Virus record (IMG/VR): IMGVR_UViG_3300023109_000007
Location: 64,001-128,000 of that record
Direction: 5' to 3' (one strand)
DNA: 64,000 bases
Source of the DNA: a virus
Part shown: piece by piece, positions 2 to 36,745 of the stretch
How the letters are laid out: each line of letters opens with the position of its first letter
Position numbering within the stretch: the stretch's first letter is position 1
Program-made: the position numbers and the translations under genes
Notes under the pieces: model-generated
What the model saw: only the letters and a program-made list of their open reading frames with translations
Database searches by the model: none
Told to the model about the DNA's origin: nothing

Positions 2-2719
2 TACTCTTTTGAATTTTGCATAATCATTTTTTGATTGCTTTAAAGATTTTACAATGTTAAAGTTTTTATTAGTTATATGATATCCTGCTAGATTCATAGG
101 AGCAGTATGCTTTACAAATCTTTTACCGTATCTATTAACATTTTTTATATCACGTAAATTGCTCGGACCTGGATATATGCCTGAAAACGCATTTATATCT
201 TCTACCATAGAATCTACATGATCAATAACTTCGCCTAATGTAAACTGAGTTATATCATCGTTGCTTGGGTTTCTTTCTAAATTAATCGGAAAATCGTAAT
301 GTCCGTTTTCATTTTTATCAGCTGTTGTTTTTACCCTTAATTCTAACACATCGTTTTCTAGTAAGTCTGTTAGAAAACGTACAAATACTCGGCCATTAAT
401 TCTGTCTAATTCATAATCTAAAAAATTACTCTTTAATTGTTTGTTAACATAAACTGCAACACGCAAGTCAGTAACATTTACTGCATTATCTACAACGTCT
501 ACTTCAAAGTTATTCTGTTGATCTATTGTAGATACATATTGTCTAATAATTTTCTGTACCATTTTAGTAGGAGTTGATTCCCAACTATTTTGGTAACTAT
601 ATTCTTTATTATTATTATATTTTTTGAGGAATGCTGTATCAGTCTTTACAGTATAAAAGCCAGCAGCATCTTGATAAACAAATGTATCAGTAAGAAGATT
701 AAAGTTAAATAATATATCTCCTGAATTTTCAATTGATTGATATTCTAATGGAAATCCTAGCTCACTATCTGCTGTTCCTTCACCTTGTGCATAACTGAAT
801 AATTTAGTACCTGCAAAATTACTTGCTTCATATGTTGTAGTATCTGAATAACTTACTTCGTTTGCATCAAACAAATCAAACGTTGGATTTATGTTTACTC
901 CGGCTTTTGCTTGTGATGCTTTCCATTGCAAATTGTCATAGTAAAATAAACTACCTGCAAATTCAACACCTTGTGTAATAAGCACTGTCTGTAAATCTTG
1001 AGGTATAGCGTCAGCTGTTTCGATTAAAGTTATTTGGCGTCTATTATTAGTTGTTATAAACTTTACTTCATAAATTTTTCCGTTAACAAGTATATCAGTA
1101 TCGGCTGCAAATAGTACACGCATGCCTTCTGCTAATGCAACACCATCAACACTATAACCTAATGATCCTTCAATTATTGAAAATACATCTGTTGTATAGT
1201 TGTCAATTAAGTCAATATCTTTTTTAGCAAATACTCCGCTATTGTGTAACTTTAATCCTGGTTCAAATTCAATAATAGGTCTTTTTGCTCTAGCACTTTG
1301 ATCTATATTACTTGGTTGATTATTTCTTAATGCTGCATAATCAATAACATCTTTGTGGAACCATCTATTGTATCTTGCCCAAGGATTTTTATCAGGAGCA
1401 GCTCTGTTTATAATAATGTAATCTTTAGTACCTGCATAACTGCTTTGGTTTGCAAAAGGTAATCTATCAAATCCTTCGCTATCAAACAAGACAGCTTTTT
1501 CGGAAGCATAAGCAGCAGGAATAATTAAGTCTTTATCTCTAACTAATGTTATTTGGCTTCCGACTCCTTCAACATAATATGTTCCTTCACTATATGTATT
1601 TGGAGTAACTTTTCCTAAGAATTCAACTTTAAGACCATTTGTAAATTTAACACCATTAGAACTTGTGTATTCTTTTTTGCCAATAATTTCTGCATCTATA
1701 TTAATTGCTGTATTTTCTTCAATATCAAAAATTCTTACTTGGCCGCTAGTATTCAAATCATTCTTACTAATATAGAATAAGAAGTCAGGAGCATTTAACG
1801 GAATAGTAAATTCTATTACTCCGCTTTCAATATATACATTTGCAATTTCTGTACCTTCTTCATCAAATCTAGATATTCCATTAGGATATAATTCACTAAT
1901 GTTTTCGTCATCTCCGATTTCAATACCGCCTTCACGTGGCTGTACAATAAATTCTCCAAGATCATATGACTCGCCAAATAATGTAGCATCAAATAATCCT
2001 TCTCCTCTAACACCTTCTCTTGTTGCTGTTATTACAGAATTGCCAGGTGTAAATGATCTTGATACTGCAAATGCCATTGGGTGGCCTGGTGTATCAATTT
2101 CAAACCTATATGTTTGACCTCTATATAATACAAGATTTGGGTTAGCAGTTAGTCCGTCTGGAGTAAACAAAAATGCAGTATCTTCTCCGGCAGTAGTTAA
2201 GCCTACTGAGTATGTACTTGTGACTGATTGAGATTGTCCTAACACTTCAACTGTTTGTGGACCAGTTGGTAACCAATAGTATTCTCTAAAGTTTACAAAT
2301 TTATCCCAATCAATATGTGGGTTCCACGGATGATAATCTTGGGCATAAGTTTCTGAATGATTAGTAGTGTTGCCGCCAAATACACCTATTTGGTTTGTAA
2401 TATCATTATAATCTTTGTAAAAATTAACAGTACCTAATTCGTCCTTTTGAACTATAGCTGGTTCAAATTGATAGTCTGTTCTTTGCTTAGATACGTCAGG
2501 AACATAATTATCTCCCGGTACAAATGCTTTTGCTGTTGTTCTTCCATAATAAGATGTAAGTTTTTCAGCTACGCCAGGTTGTATTAACTGATCTAAAGTT
2601 GCTTGTAAAAAGTTTACGTTTGCTGTTGTTCTAAAGTAACGAGGTAATAAATCTGAGCTACGTCTTTTTTCACCGCCTTCGCCCGGTAGTGGTTTATCGT
2701 TTTGATTATCTATAGCCAT
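2..2719 (-). CDS. Large virion structural/baseplate-associated protein, truncated by the window edge (not in ORF track)
   Basis: ATG at 2719 overlaps the upstream TAA (TAATG) with a GGAGG SD. It reads MAIDNQNDKPLPGEGGEKRRSSDLLPRYFRTTAN...WNPHIDWDKFVNFREYYWLP and appears to stay open to the window start (not every codon checked). It sits directly after the gp6-like gene. Confidence 0.75.
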   Translation of the reverse strand, partial: MAIDNQNDKPLPGEGGEKRRSSDLLPRYFRTTANVNFLQATLDQLIQPGVAEKLTSYYGRTTAKAFVPGDNYVPDVSKQRTDYQFEPAIVQKDELGTVNFYKDYNDITNQIGVFGGNTTNHSETYAQDYHPWNPHIDWDKFVNFREYYWLPTGPQTVEVLGQSQSVTSTYSVGLTTAGEDTAFLFTPDGLTANPNLVLYRGQTYRFEIDTPGHPMAFAVSRSFTPGNSVITATREGVRGEGLFDATLFGESYDLGEFIVQPREGGIEIGDDENISELYPNGISRFDEEGTEIANVYIESGVIEFTIPLNAPDFLFYISKNDLNTSGQVRIFDIEENTAINIDAEIIGKKEYTSSNGVKFTNGLKVEFLGKVTPNTYSEGTYYVEGVGSQITLVRDKDLIIPAAYASEKAVLFDSEGFDRLPFANQSSYAGTKDYIIINRAAPDKNPWARYNRWFHKDVIDYAALRNNQPSNIDQSARAKRPIIEFEPGLKLHNSGVFAKKDIDLIDNYTTDVFSIIEGSLGYSVDGVALAEGMRVLFAADTDILVNGKIYEVKFITTNNRRQITLIETADAIPQDLQTVLITQGVEFAGSLFYYDNLQWKASQAKAGVNINPTFDLFDANEVSYSDTTTYEASNFAGTKLFSYAQGEGTADSELGFPLEYQSIENSGDILFNFNLLTDTFVYQDAAGFYTVKTDTAFLKKYNNNKEYSYQNSWESTPTKMVQKIIRQYVSTIDQQNNFEVDVVDNAVNVTDLRVAVYVNKQLKSNFLDYELDRINGRVFVRFLTDLLENDVLELRVKTTADKNENGHYDFPINLERNPSNDDITQFTLGEVIDHVDSMVEDINAFSGIYPGPSNLRDIKNVNRYGKRFVKHTAPMNLAGYHITNKNFNIVKSLKQSKNDYAKFKRV

Positions 2720-5700
2720 TAGTAACTATAACCTCCGCTTGAAGAACTTCCCGAAGAACTACTAGAGCTACTTGAAGAAGAACTTGAACTGCTAACATTT
2801 GCTACATTACTACTACTTCTTGTGCTTAATACAGGAGCACTTTGTACCCCTACTACTTCTGCTGGTGTAGACGTAACAATTTTTCCAGACGACTGTAATT
2901 TAGAAGAAGTAATTTCGTCAATTACATCAATATCTTTTACTGTTGCGCCATTTATAAATATTTCATCGTTTTCTGAATTAATTTGGAATAGGCTTCCAAA
3001 TGATTGATCTGCTTGTTCTGGAACAATAAGAAAACTTACTAAATCAGGACTCATAAAATTCATTACATAAGAACTAAGTTCTTGAAAATAAAATGTGTCT
3101 CCAAAGTCCCAATTTTCTGTGCTAAAGAATCTATTAATTAAAGCAACTATACGTGATTTAATATCATTGTCATTTAGTACAAGATCAGGATTCTTTACAA
3201 CTTTAAATTTAACTTGCAAGTCAGGCATTGCTTTTGATCCAAATAATACTTTGTACTTAACAGGGTGATATATTATTTCATCACTTATTGATTTAATTGC
3301 ATTTAACTCTTTTCCATAAAGTCTAAATAATTCATCACTGCTAGGTGGCTTTGGTTTCATTGGCATTTCGCCTGAAAGATAAAGTCTAAACTGTGTATCA
3401 TAATTTCTACTTAATACATGAGTATCAATAATATTACTTAAACTTGGATCTATTCTATTTTCAGAATCAGCTACATGTAGGTAGTTAAACTTCAACGAGT
3501 TTCTACCAATATATGCTCTATAATTTGAAATTGTAGTTAAACTATTTGCAGTTGAATTATACTGTTTAAATACAGCTTCTTCAACTAGATAAAATATCTT
3601 TCCGTTGTTATTACTAATACGCTCTACTGCTGCTTCGTTTGTTACTTGTATAATATCTGCATTAGTATTATCAAAATATTTAAAGTCTTCAACACCATCA
3701 GACGTAGTATATAATTTTTGGTATATGTACTCATTAGCATTAACTATTTCTTCAAATATTTCAGGGTCATCAAATATGCCATCATTGTTTGAATCATAAA
3801 ATGTTACTTCTAATTTTCTAGTATCTCTGTATCCTGCTGGATCTCTAAATTCTTTAGCTGCACTCCATGTATAATCTTTATTAAACGGAACTCCAGAACC
3901 ATCAGGTTTTGAATTAATAGACAAAACATCTATTTTGTCTTTAAGAACTTTACCTGTCCTCGGATTAAAGACTTTATTTGCTTGATCAAAATAAAACTTT
4001 AGTTCGTCAGCACTTTCAAAAACATATCTTAAATTTCTGTAAGTTATTGTATATGTTTCACCATTTGTTTTGAAGTAAAGCAACCAACTAGAATCTAGTT
4101 GCTGTCCACTAACATCGCCTGTTTTACCTGTACTAAAGTCAGCTGTTGTATTAATGTTATCAGCTGTAATTAATTTCCAACGTCTTGCAATATCGTCATA
4201 TCTAATAGCATAATCGTTGTAAGCAAATGTTTGGTCAATAATCTGTGTCTTAAGGTCATCTAATAATACCGAAGACAATTTAGGTTTAATTTGTGTCAAT
4301 ATTGGTTTGATATTTGCATCGCCGTTTGAAACAGGTAATATTTCATTTAGAATAATATTTCCTATGTTGTTTGTTGTACCAGTACCGTCACCTGTAACAC
4401 TTACAACCTTTACCCATCTATATAAAGATGCGTTTGGATGATCAGCTGGTCCAGGCATTATAATATTTTCTGCATCGTCCATAAAGTGATAACCTTCTGG
4501 TGCAGCAAATCTTAACATCGATCCTGCTTCAATTAATCTTAAACTATTACTTGTAAATGCTCCAACTTTATATGATACTGCATCTTGGTCAATAAAGTTA
4601 CCTGTGTCAGCATTAGTTGACGTAGATGTTGACGACCATCGTGCATTTAAATCAGTAACAATAATTTTTGGATATTTTGCCCAATAAAAGTTTTTCATAT
4701 TAGTGCTAGTTAACAATCCTTGTATAGTATTATAAATTACACCTTCAACATCACTTTGTGTTACAAAACTAAAGTTATTCTTTTCGTCAAATTTTTGCTG
4801 GTACAAAATACCATCTGTTCCAAATAAATTTGTATTACTGTATTTTCCTGTAGTATCCTTTAAATCTAAATATCTGCTTATTCCGCTGCTAACTCTATTA
4901 ACTGATCTTGTCTTAATAATATCTTGGCTTACACCCAATGGTGCAACATTATAGTCTTCGCCTGTAATCATTCGATTTTGAGTATAATACGTTGCAGGAG
5001 CATTTGATTTTATGCTTTCATTTGACTCACTTTGTGTAGCATTATTAACAGCATACTTAAGACTCATTGTTATAGTAAGTTTTTCGTTAGTATTTTTTCT
5101 ACTAATGTAAGGTATAGAAATAGTAATATTTGACATACCTGCAGGATTAACAGAAAGATTTCTGTTAGCACTTGTTCTATAATATGTTCTAAAGTTGCCA
5201 GCTGGAAGATTGCCAAATACACCGTCACTAAACACTAGATTAATTCTATCACTAACTCTTGTAGCAACTGTAAATACGTTTCTAATATTTTTAGACAAAC
5301 TATTATAGATAATATTGTTACCTTCAACAGCAGCTAGTTTTGACCAAAGTTCGTTTTCAAATCCATTTGAATCAATGCTGTATAACCAGACATCACTGTT
5401 GTTTATGTTTGTTACATCAATAGCAATATTTTGATTAGGCGTTGGATTTTCAACAAAAAATTCTCCAGACTTTAGTGTTCCTTGTCTAAAGTGCATAAAG
5501 AAACCTGTATTAGAACTGCCAGCGCCTCTGCCGTCATCTCTAAATAGAAACGCAGGATTATTTCCTGGTAACGGTGGTTCTTCTAATATTTCTCCGTCTT
5601 GAATATCTGTACTTACTGCTTCAAATGCTACAGTAGTTCCTTCAACAGTTTTTGTAAACTTAAATCTTGGAATATCTGTGTTTAAAGAATTTAATCTGTA

Positions 5701-26556: not shown

Positions 26557-28314
26557 ATGAGTTGGAAAAAACATTTTACACCTGTCGCAACTGGTGACAA
26601 TATGGGAGGAAGTTATAGCCCTCTCGGGGGTGCGTCCAACGGAAGCAATCCAGGTCCTGCACGTACTAACTATTCAAGTTACTTGCCAGATGTATATGTA
26701 GGAACTCCAAACAGAGTTGAGCGTTATGGTCAGTACAACACAATGGATCAAGATTCAGAAGTTAATGCTGCACTTGATATACTTGCTGAATTTTGTACTC
26801 AAGAAAATAAACAAAATAGAACTCCGTTTATAATGGACTTCAAACAACAAGCTACTAATTCAGAAGTTACTATTATACAACAGTACTTGCTTCAATGGTG
26901 CAAGCTACAAAACTTTGATACTAAGATGTTCCGTACAATGAGAAATATTTTTAAGTATGGAGATGCATTTTTTATTAGAGACCCAGAAACCAAACGCTGG
27001 TTCTATGTTGATCCTGCTAACGTAACAAAAATTATTGTGAATGAATCAGAAGGCAAAGAACCTGAACAGTATGTTATTAAGAACTTTAATTTAAATTTTA
27101 AAGATGCAGTAGCAACAACTCCACACACCACAGGCGGAAACATAAGTGGCGGCGGCGCAGGTTCTTATCACCCGCAAGGCAATGCTAGAGGAATGGTAGG
27201 TCAACCGCAATCAAGTTTTACTGCAAGTAGATTTACAGAAGAAGACGGCGAAATAACTGTTGATGCAAAACATATGGTTCATCTAAGTTTGTCAGAAGGG
27301 TTAGATCAAAACTTTCCTTTTGGTAACAGTTTACTTGAAACTATTTTTAAAGTTTACAAACAAAAAGAATTACTTGAAGATGCAATTATTATCTATCGAG
27401 TACAACGTGCGCCAGAGCGCAGAGTATTCTACGTTGATGTGGGCAACATGCCTTCACACCTTGCTATGCAATTTGTTGAGCGTGTTAAAACGGAAATACA
27501 TCAAAGACGTATCCCATCGGCGACAGGAGGCGGCACTAACGTCATAGACAGTTCTTATAATCCTCTGTCAATTAACGAAGATTACTTTTTCCCACAAACT
27601 GCTGAAGGACGTGGATCTAAAGTTGAAACACTACCAGGCGGTACTAACTTAGGAGAGATTGATGACCTTAGATATTTTACTAATAAGCTCGTACGCGGTT
27701 TACGAATCCCTAGTTCATACCTACCTACCGGCGCTGACGATTCATCTGCGCAGTACAATGATGGACGAGTCGGCACTGCATACATACAAGAATTAAGATT
27801 TAATACTTACTGTGAGCGTTTACAAAATCTTGTATCTGAAGATTTTGATTTAGAATTTAAGCGTTACATATTGGAAAAGGGTGTAAACATTGACACAGCA
27901 ATGTTTGATCTAAGATTCCAACCACCACAAAACTTTGCAGCATATAGACAAAGTGAAATTGATAATGCACGTATTCCTACATTTACACAAATGAGTGCAA
28001 TACCTTACGTTTCAAATAGATTTGCAATGAAACGTTTCTTAGGAATGTCAGACGAGGAGTTAGCAGAAAACGAACGCTTGTGGCGAGAAGAAAATGATGA
28101 AGCAATTGACCAGCCACCTACTGATGCAGGAACTGAACTAAGAAGTGCAGGAATTACAGGAGCAGGTATGGAAGCAGACTTAGGTGCAGCAGAAGATGAA
28201 TTAGACACTGGCGAAGCACCGATTGATGGCGGTGCTGGCGCAGGACCAGAAACTGTTACAGCTGATCCAATTGGTGGAACAGGCAATGACGCAACAACTG
28301 ACCAAACTGTATAA
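26557..28314 (+). CDS. gp20: Portal protein
   Basis: LLEDAIIIYRVQRAPERRVFYVDVGNMP, EDYFFPQTAEGRGSKVETLPGG and LRIPSSYL motifs. Confidence 0.95.
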   Translation: MSWKKHFTPVATGDNMGGSYSPLGGASNGSNPGPARTNYSSYLPDVYVGTPNRVERYGQYNTMDQDSEVNAALDILAEFCTQENKQNRTPFIMDFKQQATNSEVTIIQQYLLQWCKLQNFDTKMFRTMRNIFKYGDAFFIRDPETKRWFYVDPANVTKIIVNESEGKEPEQYVIKNFNLNFKDAVATTPHTTGGNISGGGAGSYHPQGNARGMVGQPQSSFTASRFTEEDGEITVDAKHMVHLSLSEGLDQNFPFGNSLLETIFKVYKQKELLEDAIIIYRVQRAPERRVFYVDVGNMPSHLAMQFVERVKTEIHQRRIPSATGGGTNVIDSSYNPLSINEDYFFPQTAEGRGSKVETLPGGTNLGEIDDLRYFTNKLVRGLRIPSSYLPTGADDSSAQYNDGRVGTAYIQELRFNTYCERLQNLVSEDFDLEFKRYILEKGVNIDTAMFDLRFQPPQNFAAYRQSEIDNARIPTFTQMSAIPYVSNRFAMKRFLGMSDEELAENERLWREENDEAIDQPPTDAGTELRSAGITGAGMEADLGAAEDELDTGEAPIDGGAGAGPETVTADPIGGTGNDATTDQTV

Positions 28315-32192: not shown

Positions 32193-33365
32193 ATGTCAGA
32201 ACTACTAGAAAGTCGCTGGCAGGATACCAAAACAGCTTTACTTGAAGGCCTATCAGGCAATAAAAAAGCAGTAATGGCTTCCACGCTAGAAAACACTCGC
32301 AAGTATTTGAGTGAAAGTGCAACAGCTGGTGCTACTTCCGCCGGTAACGTTGCTACTCTTAACAGAGTAATCCTACCAGTCATCAGACGTGTTATGCCAA
32401 CAGTAATAGCAAATGAGCTAGTTGGTGTACAGCCTATGACAGGTCCAGTGGGTCAAATCCACACATTAAGAGTTCGTTATGCGGACACTTTCAACGCAGG
32501 TGCATCAGGTGCAACAGCAGGTGAAGAAGCTCTAAGCCCATTCAAAATTGCTGAATCATATTCAGGTGCAACAGACGGCAAGGCTGCGGCAACAGCAGTA
32601 CAGGAAGGACAAGCTGGAAACAGAATGTCAATCCAAATCTTGAAACAAACTGTAGAAGCAAAAACACGCAAACTAAGCGCACGTTGGACCTTCGAAGCAG
32701 CTCAAGATGCACAGTCTATGCATGGCATTGACGTTGAAGCAGAAATCATGGCAGCTCTTGCACAAGAGATTACTGCTGAGATTGACCAAGAAGTTATTGC
32801 TTCGCTACAAACACTAGCAGGCACAGCAGCTGAAACATACGACCAAGCAGCAGTATCAGGTACAGCTACTTTTGTTGGTGACGAACATGCAGCACTTGCA
32901 GTTCAAATCAACAGAGTGTCAAACTTGATTGCACAGCGTACACGCAGAGGCGCAGGTAACTATGCAGTGGTATCACCATTTGCACTAACTATCCTACAGT
33001 CTGCAACTACAAGTGCATTTGCACGTACAACTGAAGGCACATTTGAAGCACCAACTAACACTAAAATGGTTGGTACATTAAACAATGCAATGAAAGTATA
33101 TGTAAACACATACTCAGCAGATAACGCTGATGTACTAATTGGTTACAAGGGATCAAGTGAGTCAGACGCACCAGCGTTCTATTGCCCATATATCCCACTA
33201 ATGTCAAGTGGTGTAGTACTAGACCCAGCATCATTCGAACCAGTCGTGAGCTTCATGACACGTTACGGATATGTTGAGCTAACTAACACAGCTTCGTCAC
33301 TAGGTAACGCAGCTGACTACTTAGGTAAAGTTGCTATTACTAATGGTAACGTTAGCTTTAGCTAA
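32193..33365 (+). CDS. gp23: Major capsid protein
   Basis: LVGVQPMTGPVGQI, VEAKTRKLSARWTFEAAQD, EITAEIDQE, AFYCPYIPL and FMTRYG; probable maturation site YLSE|S. Confidence 0.96.
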   Translation: MSELLESRWQDTKTALLEGLSGNKKAVMASTLENTRKYLSESATAGATSAGNVATLNRVILPVIRRVMPTVIANELVGVQPMTGPVGQIHTLRVRYADTFNAGASGATAGEEALSPFKIAESYSGATDGKAAATAVQEGQAGNRMSIQILKQTVEAKTRKLSARWTFEAAQDAQSMHGIDVEAEIMAALAQEITAEIDQEVIASLQTLAGTAAETYDQAAVSGTATFVGDEHAALAVQINRVSNLIAQRTRRGAGNYAVVSPFALTILQSATTSAFARTTEGTFEAPTNTKMVGTLNNAMKVYVNTYSADNADVLIGYKGSSESDAPAFYCPYIPLMSSGVVLDPASFEPVVSFMTRYGYVELTNTASSLGNAADYLGKVAITNGNVSFS

Positions 33366-33382
33366 GTTTATATAGTAATCCT

Positions 33383-33411
33383 AAAATAGGCGCTACGGCG
33401 CCTATTTTTTT
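33383..33411 (+). terminator. Rho-independent terminator after gp23
   Basis: AAAATAGGCGC-TACG-GCGCCTATTTT followed by a T run; UNCG-type tetraloop. Confidence 0.9.
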
Positions 33412-33431
33412 GGCTACAAATCTAAGTATCA

Positions 33432-33439
33432 CTAAATAC
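33432..33439 (+). promoter_or_regulatory. Late promoter (CTAAATAC) for the porin-like gene
   Basis: TAAATA core between the gp23 terminator and ATG 33482. Confidence 0.55.
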
Positions 33440-33481
33440 CCTGATACACATTCTTAAACTACCACAGAAAGGTAATACATT

Positions 33482-34489
33482 ATGAAACAGATATTGATTA
33501 CATTATCTGCAATATTTTCTATTATTGCAGCATCTGCTTACGCAGAAACAACAACAACTCTTGAACAAAGAGTTGCTAACTTAGAAAAGTCAGCACCTTC
33601 ACTTCCGGCAGGTGTGTTTATTAACGGTGAAATTGAATTATACATTGATCCTGATAGTACAACAAATAAAACGGAAACTAATGCAGAAATATTTATAGGT
33701 CTGCAAAATGAGATTGACCATCCTGTAATAAATTGGGCAGGAGCAAGCACACGCCTTGATTCAAAATATTCCTTAAACAGAACATTGGACAATACTATTG
33801 TTGAAAAACAATTAGGATTTGGAATTGCTGGTACAAGATTATATTTTGGCGAAACAGATGCTCAACGTTTAGGCTTTGCAAAAACATCTAAAATTGGCGC
33901 ACCATTAGTTATTACAGAGTCAAGTAGTAGAATTGACCATAATGAAAAAATTGTACTTACATTTGGTGGATGGAAAAACAACAACGAGTTTGAGTTTGAC
34001 GAATATAGATTACAGCGTGATACGCCATACGGCGGAGTTGTAGCATACGATCCAAATAATGAAGTAACATATGCAGGAGCAACAGTAAGTTTATTTGGAC
34101 TAGCTGATGTTTCTTATATGCGTATTGACAAAAAAGATGCAGTACTACAAGAAGGCTATTCAATTGGCACTCAAGTACTTCGTAGATACCGAATACCTGT
34201 AGGACTTGGAGTTGAAGTATGGGACGATGGCAACACTGGAACATTTACTTCTGAAAGTAGAATTGATATGGGAATAATGTACAATGTCAATAAAGAATTC
34301 ATGCTTACTGCACATAAAGTCAAAAATGACGATATTGGTACAGATGCAATGTACTACGGAGCATTATATACTGTAGGTAATATCCAAACTGGATTGTATT
34401 TGCACCAAGTAGATAGAACAAACACATGGACCGGTCAAAGAACTGAATATGCCGATAGTATGAAAGCTACAATTAAATATTCTTTTTAA
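33482..34489 (+). CDS. Outer-membrane porin-like beta-barrel protein
   Basis: Sec signal peptide (MKQILITLSAIFSIIAASAYA), short coiled coil, amphipathic beta strands, C-terminal ATIKYSF (BAM-type terminal Phe). Confidence 0.7.
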   Translation: MKQILITLSAIFSIIAASAYAETTTTLEQRVANLEKSAPSLPAGVFINGEIELYIDPDSTTNKTETNAEIFIGLQNEIDHPVINWAGASTRLDSKYSLNRTLDNTIVEKQLGFGIAGTRLYFGETDAQRLGFAKTSKIGAPLVITESSSRIDHNEKIVLTFGGWKNNNEFEFDEYRLQRDTPYGGVVAYDPNNEVTYAGATVSLFGLADVSYMRIDKKDAVLQEGYSIGTQVLRRYRIPVGLGVEVWDDGNTGTFTSESRIDMGIMYNVNKEFMLTAHKVKNDDIGTDAMYYGALYTVGNIQTGLYLHQVDRTNTWTGQRTEYADSMKATIKYSF

Positions 34490-34498
34490 AAAAAAAGG

Positions 34499-34526
34499 TT
34501 GACATCTTATATATAGATGCTATTAT
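34499..34526 (+). promoter_or_regulatory. sigma70-type promoter
   Basis: TTGACA (34499-504), 16-nt spacer ending in TGc, TATTAT (34521-26). Confidence 0.7.
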
Positions 34527-34534
34527 GTATATAT

Positions 34535-34740
34535 AAGCTAAACGACGGTTTAGATTAGATAGTGCAAGGAACGGTGTTGCGTAGTGACACAACTTGGCTA
34601 GTAGCTGTAGTGGCAACATATGAGTGTAGAGATACAAAGATATGTTTTTGGAAGTAACTATCCGATGCTAGGCTCCTCCGAACATGGCGAGAGCTACTAG
34701 GAGGTTGTTGGTATTCTCAGAGTCCAACCTATCACTTTAT
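34535..34740 (+). ncRNA. Candidate stand-alone structured ncRNA
   Basis: ORF-less and bracketed by a promoter and terminator. Helices include CTAGTAGCT/AGCTACTAG, AACATAT/ATATGTT with a GAGA tetraloop, GTGTTGC/GTGACAC and AGGTTG/CAACCT. Confidence 0.65.
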
Positions 34741-34744
34741 TATT

Positions 34745-34779
34745 AAAAGGTCTACCCACTAATGCGGTAGGCCTTTTTT
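34745..34779 (+). terminator. Rho-independent terminator
   Basis: AAAAGGTCTACC...GGTAGGCCTTTT followed by a T-rich tail. Confidence 0.8.
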
Positions 34780-34797
34780 CTTTTCTCTTAGACCTTT

Positions 34798-34901
34798 GAT
34801 AAATACTATTGTCAAATAGTGTGCCGCAAGGCGGACTTATGCTGTACCCACAGCGTAGCTCATAGAACGGGCATAGGACTACTTTTTATAGGAGAAAAAA
34901 A
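34798..34901 (+). promoter_or_regulatory. Late promoter (GATAAATA) plus structured 5' leader
   Basis: GCC-GCAA-GGC, TATGCTGT-ACCC-ACAGCGTA and GCTC...GGGC hairpins before the AGGAG SD. Confidence 0.55.
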
Positions 34902-35306
34902 ATGGGAAGACCAATTAATAAAAGATTTTTCGGAGAGCCAACAGCAGCTGGTTCTGAAATCAAAGTACGTTTTCGTGCTACAGGACAAGCAGAAGCAAAC
35001 GGCTGGATTGTAAAGCAATTAGGATCTAAGAAGTTCCGTTGCTACGATGGTACTAACACAATGGATTGTACAATCGTTGACAAATCACAAGGTACGTTAG
35101 CAGTAGGCGAAATGACGATTACAGTTAAAGACGATGGCGGCACAGCACGTCAAGTAACTAAAATTGCAGGACGCAAAGTAACACTTGACTCAGGCGCAAG
35201 TATTGCTTGGAACTTCAGTAATGCTACAGATGATGCAGCAGTTGAAATGGAAGAAGCTGGTACAGCTGATGACTTCACTGGCGCAGACGATTTCGAAGCT
35301 GACTAA
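34902..35306 (+). CDS. Putative virion structural protein
   Basis: 134 aa, strong SD, late promoter; MGRPINKRFFG...WIVKQLGSKKF. Confidence 0.65.
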   Translation: MGRPINKRFFGEPTAAGSEIKVRFRATGQAEANGWIVKQLGSKKFRCYDGTNTMDCTIVDKSQGTLAVGEMTITVKDDGGTARQVTKIAGRKVTLDSGASIAWNFSNATDDAAVEMEEAGTADDFTGADDFEAD

Positions 35307-35314
35307 AAATAAAT

Positions 35315-35335
35315 TAGGGGGATTTATTCCCCCTA
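35315..35335. terminator. Intergenic hairpin (weak terminator or mRNA stabiliser)
   Basis: TAGGGGGA-TTTAT-TCCCCCTA, with no long U tract. Confidence 0.5.
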
Positions 35336-35355
35336 CACTTAGCTAGGATTACATA

Positions 35356-36357
35356 ATGTCAAGATTTCTTAAAGTACCAAACGGTGATTACAAAATACAA
35401 GTACAAGATCAAGGATCTATTGTATTAGATACAGGCTTTCAAACAGGCCAAGTTCGCATCACTGGAGATCTTGTAGTTGAAGGTGACACAACAACTGTAC
35501 AGTCTGAGAACATGAGTGTTAGAGATAACATAATTGTTATTAATGACGGAGAAGCAGGTGTAGGTGTTACATTAAATGAAGCAGGATTAAGAATTGATCG
35601 AGGTAGTTTAGTTGATGCATTTATGGTGTTTGACGAAGACTTAACATGGACTGATCCAGTAACAGATAGTTTAAGAGAAGGTGCGTTTGTTTTCAAAGAT
35701 GTAAACGGCGGAGCAGTTGGCTTACGATGTAATAGTATATCAACAGGCGGCGGCGACTTATACTTAATTAATTCAAGTACTGGTGTTGTTAGTGTATCAG
35801 GTACAAACAACTATGAAAATAATGTTACTGACGATGACCACCTTCCTAATAAGAAATATGTAGATGATGAAATTATTAATGCGTTTGCTACAGTATTCCA
35901 AGCAAGAATTGGTGAAGGGTCTGTACTTCCTTCGTTTGTTGAAGTTGAAGATAACGAAGACACAACACTTCCAAGTGTTGTAAAGATTGGACTAGACGAT
36001 GTTGTTGTAGCAGAGTTCTACCGCAACAGAATAGAATTAAACGATTTAAGAATCGAAGGAACAAAACTAGAAACAGTTAACTCTAATGAAGACTTAGTAC
36101 TTTCTACACCAGGATCAGGCGTAGTACGAGTACAAGACGTACTAGAGATATCGTCAACACCTAGTATTGACGATCCAGATCAAAACTTATTACAAGCAGG
36201 TGTACAATACGAACCTGGCTTTCCGAGTAATGGTATTAGACTATATGTAAAAGAAAGAGAATTTGGCGGCAGCGGAGTTTTCTTCAAACATCAGGATCTA
36301 ACTAGAGACGAATTAATAAGTAAGAATAGATCAATAGTTTATAGTATGATATTTTAA
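35356..36357 (+). CDS. Virion structural/fibre-associated protein
   Basis: ITGDLVVEGDTTTV...DNIIVIN...AGLRIDRG and NKKYVDD fibre-type motifs. Confidence 0.65.
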   Translation: MSRFLKVPNGDYKIQVQDQGSIVLDTGFQTGQVRITGDLVVEGDTTTVQSENMSVRDNIIVINDGEAGVGVTLNEAGLRIDRGSLVDAFMVFDEDLTWTDPVTDSLREGAFVFKDVNGGAVGLRCNSISTGGGDLYLINSSTGVVSVSGTNNYENNVTDDDHLPNKKYVDDEIINAFATVFQARIGEGSVLPSFVEVEDNEDTTLPSVVKIGLDDVVVAEFYRNRIELNDLRIEGTKLETVNSNEDLVLSTPGSGVVRVQDVLEISSTPSIDDPDQNLLQAGVQYEPGFPSNGIRLYVKEREFGGSGVFFKHQDLTRDELISKNRSIVYSMIF

Positions 36358-36367
36358 AGGATAAAAG

Positions 36368-36745
36368 ATGGCAATTAGCAGTGTAGCAGTAGCAAATACA
36401 GATACAGATTTAATACTTGTACCAGATCCGGTTGCAGGATGGGATCCTGCAACATCACCTGAACCTACAATAAGGTATGCAGTTACAACTATTATGGTTT
36501 GTAATACTTGGGTACCTAATCCAGTTCATGAAGAAGATGGTATAACAAATTTTGATTTGCATCTTGTTAAAAGAGATGAACCAAAGAGTGACACAAATAA
36601 GATTATAAATGCTTTACAATTACCTGCAGGTGAAACATTTACTTTTGATTCAGAAAAAATAATTCTAGAATCAGGTGATAAAGTAGTTATAGTAGGTGAA
36701 TCACCTACTAATCTAAGTGCAACGGTAAGTTACTTAGAGGTATAA
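36368..36745 (+). CDS. Small structural protein (paralogue of 44990 and 59844)
   Basis: Shared pattern xxP...V..(C/T)N...LP..T.....K.I......V...S.......SY.E. Confidence 0.65.
   Translation: MAISSVAVANTDTDLILVPDPVAGWDPATSPEPTIRYAVTTIMVCNTWVPNPVHEEDGITNFDLHLVKRDEPKSDTNKIINALQLPAGETFTFDSEKIILESGDKVVIVGESPTNLSATVSYLEV

Follow-up and report, generated by a model that had tools for sequence, protein, structure and literature searches.

A diverged manA-type RNA with its own promoter and terminator in the head-gene cluster of an uncultured marine giant phage

The manA RNA family (Rfam RF01745) has been listed since 2010 as an orphan candidate for cis-regulation. Weinberg et al. rated it cis-regulatory and a probable riboswitch on the basis of its position in potential 5′ untranslated regions (UTRs), and the pairing between its loops was marked ‘pseudoknot?’ in that work (PMC2864571). 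The main text of a 2026 cryo-electron microscopy (cryo-EM) preprint (10.64898/2026.07.01.735769) still introduces the family in this way, and describes intermolecular contacts between loops L5 and L7′, between L8 and L9′ and between L6 and helix P6′ that build pentamers, decamers and a 60-mer shell. The large ornate RNAs GOLLD, ROOL and OLE likewise are described as forming RNA-only homo-oligomers (Nature 2025, PMC12286853). Here we analyse a 64,000-nucleotide (nt) stretch of viral DNA (positions 64,001 to 128,000 of IMG/VR record IMGVR_UViG_3300023109_000007; hereafter the window) that carries, inside a cluster of phage head genes, an RNA gene related to manA.

The gene at positions 34499-34785 of the window is complete in itself and encodes a folded RNA about 245 nt long (Table 1), and this unit is very probably a stand-alone manA-type RNA gene. 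We propose, more tentatively, that the RNA may work through self-assembly. On balance we favour the whole account, in which a stand-alone manA-type gene would produce a trans-acting, self-assembling RNA.

The sigma70-type promoter scores 11 of 12, is the top promoter-like site within 33000-36500 and is conserved in the alignment of relatives; transcription is predicted to start near 34533. The −10 element lies 12 nt ahead of the modelled RNA, and another 12 nt separate the end of the fold from the intrinsic terminator, whose stem has a G+C core of GGTCTACC/GGTAGGCC. This terminator was found by a hairpin scan and forms in the single-sequence fold; a consensus terminator scan missed it because its loop is 9 nt long. 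There is no open reading frame (ORF) of at least 60 amino acids (aa) on the plus strand of 34490-34901. A preliminary description of the sequence had called an independent RNA gene here from just these elements (a TTGACA-N16-TATTAT promoter, an ORF-less stretch and a strong terminator), and each of them was recovered, together with a conserved fold. Frames of 31 aa (plus strand) and 54 aa (minus strand) overlap the RNA, but a small-ORF reading was rejected because relatives show 1–2-nt insertions and deletions as well as paired changes. The single-sequence fold has an energy of −74.1 kcal/mol (z = −2.26; 3 of 200 shuffled sequences were equally good) and already displays P1, P2, P3, P6, P7, P8 and P9 in addition to the terminator.

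Table 1. Features of the manA-type RNA gene and its surroundings (positions in the window)
Feature	Position	Strand	Sequence or remark
sigma70-type promoter	34499-34526	+	-35 TTGACA 34499-34504, 16-nt spacer, TG-extended -10 TATTAT 34521-34526
manA-type RNA core, nine helices	34538-34733	+	from Rfam manA and R1 alignments
P1	34538-43/34548-53	+	CTAAAC/GTTTAG
P2	34558-62/34729-33	+	GATAG/CTATC
P3	34565-68/34593-96 and 34574-80/34584-90	+	CAAG/CTTG with GTGTTGC/GTGACAC
P4	34598-603/34666-71	+	CTAGTA/TGCTAG, covarying
P5	34604-06/34612-14	+	
P6	34615-21/34640-46 and 34625-28/34633-36	+	AACATAT/ATATGTT and TGTA/TACA; GNRA loop GAGA 34629-32
P7	34648-52/34661-65	+	
P8	34675-79/34700-04	+	CCTCC/GGAGG
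P9	34707-11/34724-28	+	GTTGG/CCAAC, 100% paired
L8-L9	34689-34693 with 34714-34718	+	GAGAG with UUCUC, loop-loop complementarity
L5-L7	34608-34611 with 34657-34660	+	UAGU with ACUA, loop-loop complementarity
Intrinsic terminator	34745-34785	+	stem 34745-34756 (AAAAGGTCTACC)/34766-34777 (GGTAGGCCTTTT), 9-nt loop, T-run 34774-34784
Late-promoter-like word	34798-34805	+	GATAAATA, between terminator and freshwater-2
freshwater-2 RNA motif (RF02980)	34820-34904	+	68.4 bits, cut-off 49.9; separate from the RNA gene
335-aa ORF	33482-34489		directly upstream of the spacer; no Pfam or PHROG family
134-aa ORF	34902-35306	+	downstream of the spacer; no Pfam or PHROG family

A scan of the window with Rfam’s own filters returned only the freshwater-2 motif above cut-off. 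A sensitive Rfam scan of the spacer found manA at 34538-34738, aligned over the entire model (positions 1-192 of 192) with 42.1 bits and E = 1.5e-9 for a search of 551 nt, and with the complete architecture of the family: first hairpin, closing helix, two multi-helix junctions and nine helices. Relatives were gathered in two ways. Searching loci identified through the flanking proteins with nhmmer and the spacer as query gave full-length RNA copies in many syntenic loci and the freshwater-2 leader alone, with no manA-type RNA, in others; all 13 distinct copies from syntenic relatives were full-length manA matches at 39–49.7 bits, all below the Rfam cut-off. A word pattern taken from the most conserved junction, which fixes ATAGTGCAAGGAA and AACTTG, occurred in at least 119 viral-contig stretches. 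After leaving out 18 contig-edge matches and five contigs that lack the 3′ half of the RNA (L221, L135, L149, L158 and L173), this second set comprised, among the matches listed, 130 instances, or 100 distinct sequences once identical cores were collapsed. P2 and P3a are invariant in this set because the pattern fixes these words, and the junction words are also kept in 13 of the 13 protein-anchored relatives.

A covariance model built from 51 representatives of the relatives (R1) matched all 100 distinct instances at 127–179 bits and the window at 164.6 bits (34531-34735), the single R1 copy in the IMG/VR record. Conversely, the Rfam manA model matched 14 of 16 wider loci at E <= 0.01, and five of the 16 passed its cut-off at 55.4–61.9 bits, including one (L189) from clade A, the group of 45 of the 100 sequences that contains the window copy and is mostly sub-threshold for the Rfam model. 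The canonical manA RNA of the cultured cyanophage S-SSM7, which scores 123.6 bits with the Rfam model, was found over its full length by R1 (38.2 bits, E = 1.1e-10). Because the two models recover each other’s members, we regard them as describing one family, and on these alignments the window RNA is related to manA, though diverged and sub-threshold, and does not form a new class. The preliminary description had seen no motif that it could recognise and had named identity with an Rfam family as grounds for giving up its proposal; the full-length alignment to manA and the continuous family with members above the cut-off count as such an identity, even though the window copy itself is sub-threshold. 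When either the 412-nt spacer or just the RNA was compared with cultured phages by blastn, only chance-level words of 19–36 nt were returned; the one in S-SSM7 lies inside a coding sequence (CDS) and is unrelated to the real manA RNA of that phage. R1 had no match in the cultured giant phages MG592671.1, PV764938.1, KU574722.1 and MK797984.1 at a sensitivity that recovers the window copy.

The predicted nine-helix, two-junction fold is kept by compensatory changes. RNAalifold recovered P2, P3, P4, P8 and P9 from an unguided MAFFT alignment. In the model-guided alignment of the 100 sequences, 81.2% of cells were paired compared with 63.2% after shuffling, and the covariation score was 0.482 compared with 0.171 (none of 500 shuffles scored as high; partners slid out of register reached at most 0.127), with many double changes in P4 (98.7% paired), P8 (94.0%) and P9 (100%). 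Between clades, P1, P5 and P7 are shifted in register in the covariance-model alignment (59–83%), and these helices were judged on a MAFFT alignment of clade A (n = 45), in which 90.5% of cells were paired compared with 79.1% shuffled and 40 of 66 pairs were altered on both sides; the structure used there was read off the window row and leans towards it.

Five of the seven helices proposed in the preliminary description are retained in this fold (P1, P2, P3, P6 and P8), whereas two are not, and P4, P5, P7 and the loop–loop pairings were absent from its list. The 9-base-pair (bp) long-range helix CTAGTAGCT/AGCTACTAG can be written in the window sequence, but in 45 relatives it was 64.0% paired compared with 63.1% shuffled (90 of 500 shuffles were as high), and it competes with the covarying P4. 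AGGTTG/CAACCT showed neither covariation nor a double change; the real helix at that place is P9. The suggested pairing of CCTCC with GGAGG is helix P8, all five pairs of which are altered on both sides within clade A. The other role suggested for CCTCC, as an anti-Shine–Dalgarno sequence acting in trans, fares less well: the word is the 5′ arm of P8 and its letters change together with their partners, so it is not conserved and such an action is unlikely.

Loop–loop pairing of the manA type is also present, with L8–L9 covarying and L5–L7 kept with weak covariation. When the comparison was restricted to the site, the best complementary run between cognate L8 and L9 had a mean of 4.52, compared with 3.56 +/- 0.10 when partners were permuted (none of 1,000 permutations was as high; 62 distinct loop pairs; the permutation ignores kinship). 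A dozen or more distinct complementary word pairs occupy one register, for example GAGAG/UUCUC, AUGA/UCAU, AGGAU/AUCCU, AUGGAAU/AUUCCAU, UGGU/ACCA and CUGAU/AUCAG, and a column count gave 62.2% paired compared with 50.5% shuffled. An unrestricted test of best complementary runs (4.66 cognate, 4.36 non-cognate) did not separate the two because L8 is long, and is superseded by the site-restricted one. Between L5 and L7, 95.0% of cells were paired in the 45 clade-A sequences compared with 93.3% shuffled. L6 is a GNRA loop, GAGA. We consider the predicted L8–L9 complementarity well supported and that of L5–L7 weakly supported.

The window RNA thus shares with manA the order of the nine helices, a first hairpin with a GACG-type loop, a long hairpin capped by a GNRA loop, GGUA...UCC in P9 and complementarity at the same loops; the carriers of both are phages from aquatic habitats, and the canonical S-SSM7 copy likewise stands behind a sigma70-type promoter. 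It differs in its P2–P3 junction (GUGCAAGGAA, compared with GUGaCUGAAUAA in the Rfam consensus), in having UAGU/ACUA instead of UGGU/ACCA at L5/L7, in its carrier, which is a giant phage and not a cyanophage, and in its own terminator in place of a 5′ UTR position. The two interfaces described for manA_A0F1, the member that forms the 60-mer in the main text of the preprint (10.64898/2026.07.01.735769), are L5/L7 and L8/L9; both are complementary in the window RNA, which also has a GNRA loop at L6. None of the RNAs presented there has the window sequence, whose interfaces are predicted from complementarity; its helices were numbered by counting those of the Rfam consensus, and the correspondence to the numbering of the preprint rests on that count. 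GOLLD, ROOL and OLE, as described (PMC12286853), resemble the window RNA as stand-alone structured RNAs that are often phage-associated and multimerize through RNA–RNA contacts; they are several hundred nucleotides long and unrelated in sequence and fold, and their Rfam models have no match in the window.

Gene anatomy across the family bears on whether the window unit is free-standing. A promoter scoring at least 10 of 12 precedes 93 of the 100 relatives, compared with 9 of 500 random windows from the same loci, its −10 element ending 12 or 17–20 nt ahead of the model start. A terminator begins within 30 nt behind 59 of the 100 (control, 37 of 500 windows, with 120 nt of start positions scanned). 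These terminators change freely: different hairpins occupy the same place, and as many as five distinct stems are found behind one and the same RNA 3′ end. Homologues of the 134-aa gene were found at 79 loci, and the RNA precedes the gene at just 22 of them (some flanks are incomplete); the other 57 keep the gene and its leader without the RNA. Taken together, the conserved promoter, the freely changing terminators and this patchy presence fit a stand-alone gene better than a cis role.

Some copies adjoin tRNA genes. A tRNA-Gly(UCC) gene lies 8 nt behind the RNA in two viral contigs (L120, 105-179; L131, 4366-4439), and in S-SSM7 (NC_015287.1) manA stands behind TTGACA-N17-TATAAT and runs directly into tRNA-Gly(UCC) at 151564-151634. 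These arrangements, with 0–9 nt between manA and tRNA-Gly, read as a stable-RNA operon. Phage T4 produces small stable RNAs, species 1 and 2, that are co-transcribed with tRNAs; compared by description only, their layout is like that of the three manA–tRNA-Gly loci and unlike that of the window copy, which has no adjacent tRNA. The CDS annotated as SSSM7_180 in S-SSM7 (151441-151572, ‘hypothetical protein’) overlaps the manA RNA and is probably spurious. Two contigs with manA-type RNAs also have matches to transfer-messenger RNA (tmRNA), at 6272-6576 in L202 and 2866-3140 in L222, where the permuted tmRNA model RF04321 scored 106.6 and 80.4 bits and alpha_tmRNA 85.8 bits.

In its behaviour the unit resembles a movable gene for a stable RNA and not the leader of any specific gene, and a structural RNA acting in trans is therefore our preferred reading. 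With its interfaces kept and with the contacts reported from cryo-EM in mind, we favour a multimerizing RNA. We hypothesize that host RNA polymerase would transcribe the RNA from early in infection, a timing suggested by the promoter type alone, and that late transcripts from the head genes would also stop at the terminator of the RNA gene. The RNA would then act in trans without controlling the next gene, offering loops L8/L9 and L5/L7 and the GNRA loop L6 for RNA–RNA contacts, and could self-assemble into a multimeric particle, which might serve in infection as a scaffold, for sequestration or as a decoy.

Several observations weigh against this account. The window copy does not reach the manA gathering cut-off (42.1 compared with 55.2 bits), and the 100-sequence set was collected by an exact word pattern and is hence a biased sample. 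Sliding L8–L9 by −1 is nearly as good as the proposed register (60.2% compared with 62.2%); L5–L7 has only one covarying pair (AU 32, GC 4, GU 3) and is broken in some subclades. Assembly in the preprint (10.64898/2026.07.01.735769; main text) was seen in vitro, for other members of the family and with concentrated RNA in 10 mM Mg. Six RNA libraries contain 20–30% of the words of an 801-nt stretch, and contigs in four of them, from four studies, cover about 34529-34740 with a summed word depth of 8–3345, compared with 0–4.8 on the upstream ORF; these contigs come from relatives, the depths are summed over organisms and DNA carry-over is possible. Several of the contigs extend into promoter or upstream sequence, and they are therefore no evidence for a discrete transcript; nor do we read the parts that they leave uncovered as a sign of absence. 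A further point is that loop covariation fits contacts within and between molecules alike, and that P8 and P9, as neighbouring 5-bp hairpins, could kiss within one molecule.

This last point leads to the alternative that survives best, although we consider it unlikely: a trans-acting monomer, its loop pairs formed intramolecularly and locking the fold, that binds a target RNA or a host or phage protein as a sponge or decoy, as 6S RNA does with RNA polymerase. All the evidence for a stand-alone unit would serve such a monomer equally well, the equal stem lengths of the adjacent P8 and P9 would allow docking in the predicted geometry, and the junction words are strongly conserved, down to every protein-anchored relative. 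However, the pairing and variability of CCUCC speak against action as an anti-Shine–Dalgarno sequence, and in the cryo-EM structures of other manA RNAs presented in the main text of the preprint (10.64898/2026.07.01.735769) these loops are used between molecules.

If the family label applied to the window copy, the RNA would be a cis-acting riboswitch or attenuator whose fold senses a ligand or condition and sets read-through towards the 134-aa gene and its freshwater-2 leader. A gene does follow the RNA on the same strand, and the relatives of the RNA lend the idea weight beyond the published rating. No terminator is found nearby in 41 of the 100, and many of these stand 19–104 nt ahead of a gene, some of them with a start codon only 19–29 nt away (L202 and L127, ahead of rubrerythrin; L148). 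Of the terminator-less copies, 22 precede gp32-like genes (judged by eye from N-termini; the Pfam gp32 family was confirmed for one, L182), and others precede the rubrerythrin gene of L202, a peroxiredoxin-like ORF or ORF-poor sequence. For terminator-less relatives that adjoin genes a cis role is possible, which also tells against our account, and because so many relatives directly precede genes, the cis reading keeps some weight.

For the window copy we nevertheless judge cis action quite improbable. The RNA is not in a 5′ UTR position: a terminator, a late-promoter-like word and the freshwater-2 leader separate it from the next gene, which the latter two already serve. Fold and terminator show no overlap and no covariation with each other, and no mutually exclusive pairing of sensor and terminator was found in 59 units. 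Blocking the 3′ arm of the terminator costs 13.3 kcal/mol compared with 14.1 for the hairpin itself (mean ratio 0.96 over the 59 units), so that no competing antiterminator is apparent and no alternative pairing compensates for the block. The downstream genes are also mutually unrelated (a structural gene, gp32, rubrerythrin, a tRNA), and the 57 loci that keep the 134-aa gene and leader do so with no such RNA.

A very improbable alternative is that the RNA is the structured 3′ terminus of the late mRNA from upstream, mainly protecting or ending the head-gene transcript, and that the promoter is incidental. In its favour, there is no terminator between the stop codon of the 335-aa ORF (34489) and the RNA, so late read-through must traverse the RNA before it ends at the terminator. 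Against it, the promoter is conserved in many different contexts, RNAs of this type also stand ahead of tRNAs and of early genes, gp32 among them, and a fold of nine helices and 200 nt whose loop contacts covary far exceeds what an end-protecting hairpin needs.

The stand-alone gene that we favour is carried by an uncultured marine giant myovirus, not a cyanophage. The IMG/VR record is 137.7 kb long with a completeness estimate of 36%, and the stretch is present in DNA runs from marine and seawater metagenomes. Among the genes of the window are those for a T4-type portal protein (26557-28314) and a major capsid protein of the Gp23 type (32193-33365); the capsid protein shares 67–71% identity with its counterparts in Vibrio phage 2.275.O, Sinorhizobium phage Phosso, CBB, GAP32 and PA5oct; these nearest capsid relatives are giant myoviruses with genomes of 287–469 kb. 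Within this head-gene cluster, the RNA gene occupies the 412-nt spacer at 34490-34901. The 335-aa ORF upstream of it has homologues in 28 viral contigs (51–98% identity).

Between the RNA gene and the 134-aa ORF, the freshwater-2 motif extends into the ATG of that ORF; a literature search on freshwater-2 returned nothing pertinent. T4-type late promoters have the consensus word TATAAATA. The word GATAAATA resembles it and is probably the separate promoter of the downstream gene, and [TG]ATAAATA occurs within 120 nt downstream in 69 of the 100 relatives compared with 8 of 495 control windows.

Spacers of relatives hold further elements. Glutamine riboswitch aptamers (RF01739) score above cut-off in L011 (3528-3574) and also in L042, L058, L071, L074, L112 and L134, where they closely follow the 335-aa gene homologue and precede the manA-type promoter by about 150 nt, so that those phages have three Rfam motifs in one spacer; the aptamer is absent from the window. 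In L005 and L007 an insert of about 540 nt (about 3790-4325) lies between the manA-type terminator and freshwater-2, and opens with an ORF whose N terminus resembles a lipoprotein signal. Four contigs with no terminator (L122, L194, L167 and L146) have conserved ORF-poor sequence in the 200 nt behind the RNA, which may represent further RNA modules.

The manA family itself, in Rfam since 2010, and the self-assembly of some members, reported in the 2026 preprint, were already known. New here are the sub-threshold clade in a non-cyanophage giant phage, the closed promoter–RNA–terminator layout inside a head-gene cluster, and a family-wide tally that counts against the ‘cis-regulatory’ label of manA; a literature search that included the 2010 paper (PMC2864571) and the preprint turned up no statement that manA forms a stand-alone transcription unit. 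An entire clade from non-cyanophage giant phages escapes the Rfam manA model. The anatomy of the gene, with its own promoter, a terminator or tRNA behind it, cassette-like gain and loss and unrelated neighbours, points to a free-standing stable RNA. With a transcript, its expected ends and its loop pairs named, the manA cages formed in vitro become biologically testable.

A bolder possibility, which we hold to be doubtful, is that the RNA forms an RNA-only closed shell or ring from early infection, in which 245-nt subunits, transcribed by host polymerase and joined by L8–L9′ and L5–L7′ kissing loops, would make a compartment or a decoy, for example one that sequesters a host factor. If so, manA would be a class of viral structural RNAs rather than of riboswitches, and the stand-alone copies of giant phages and cyanophages, closed by a terminator or linked to a tRNA, would be their natural genes.

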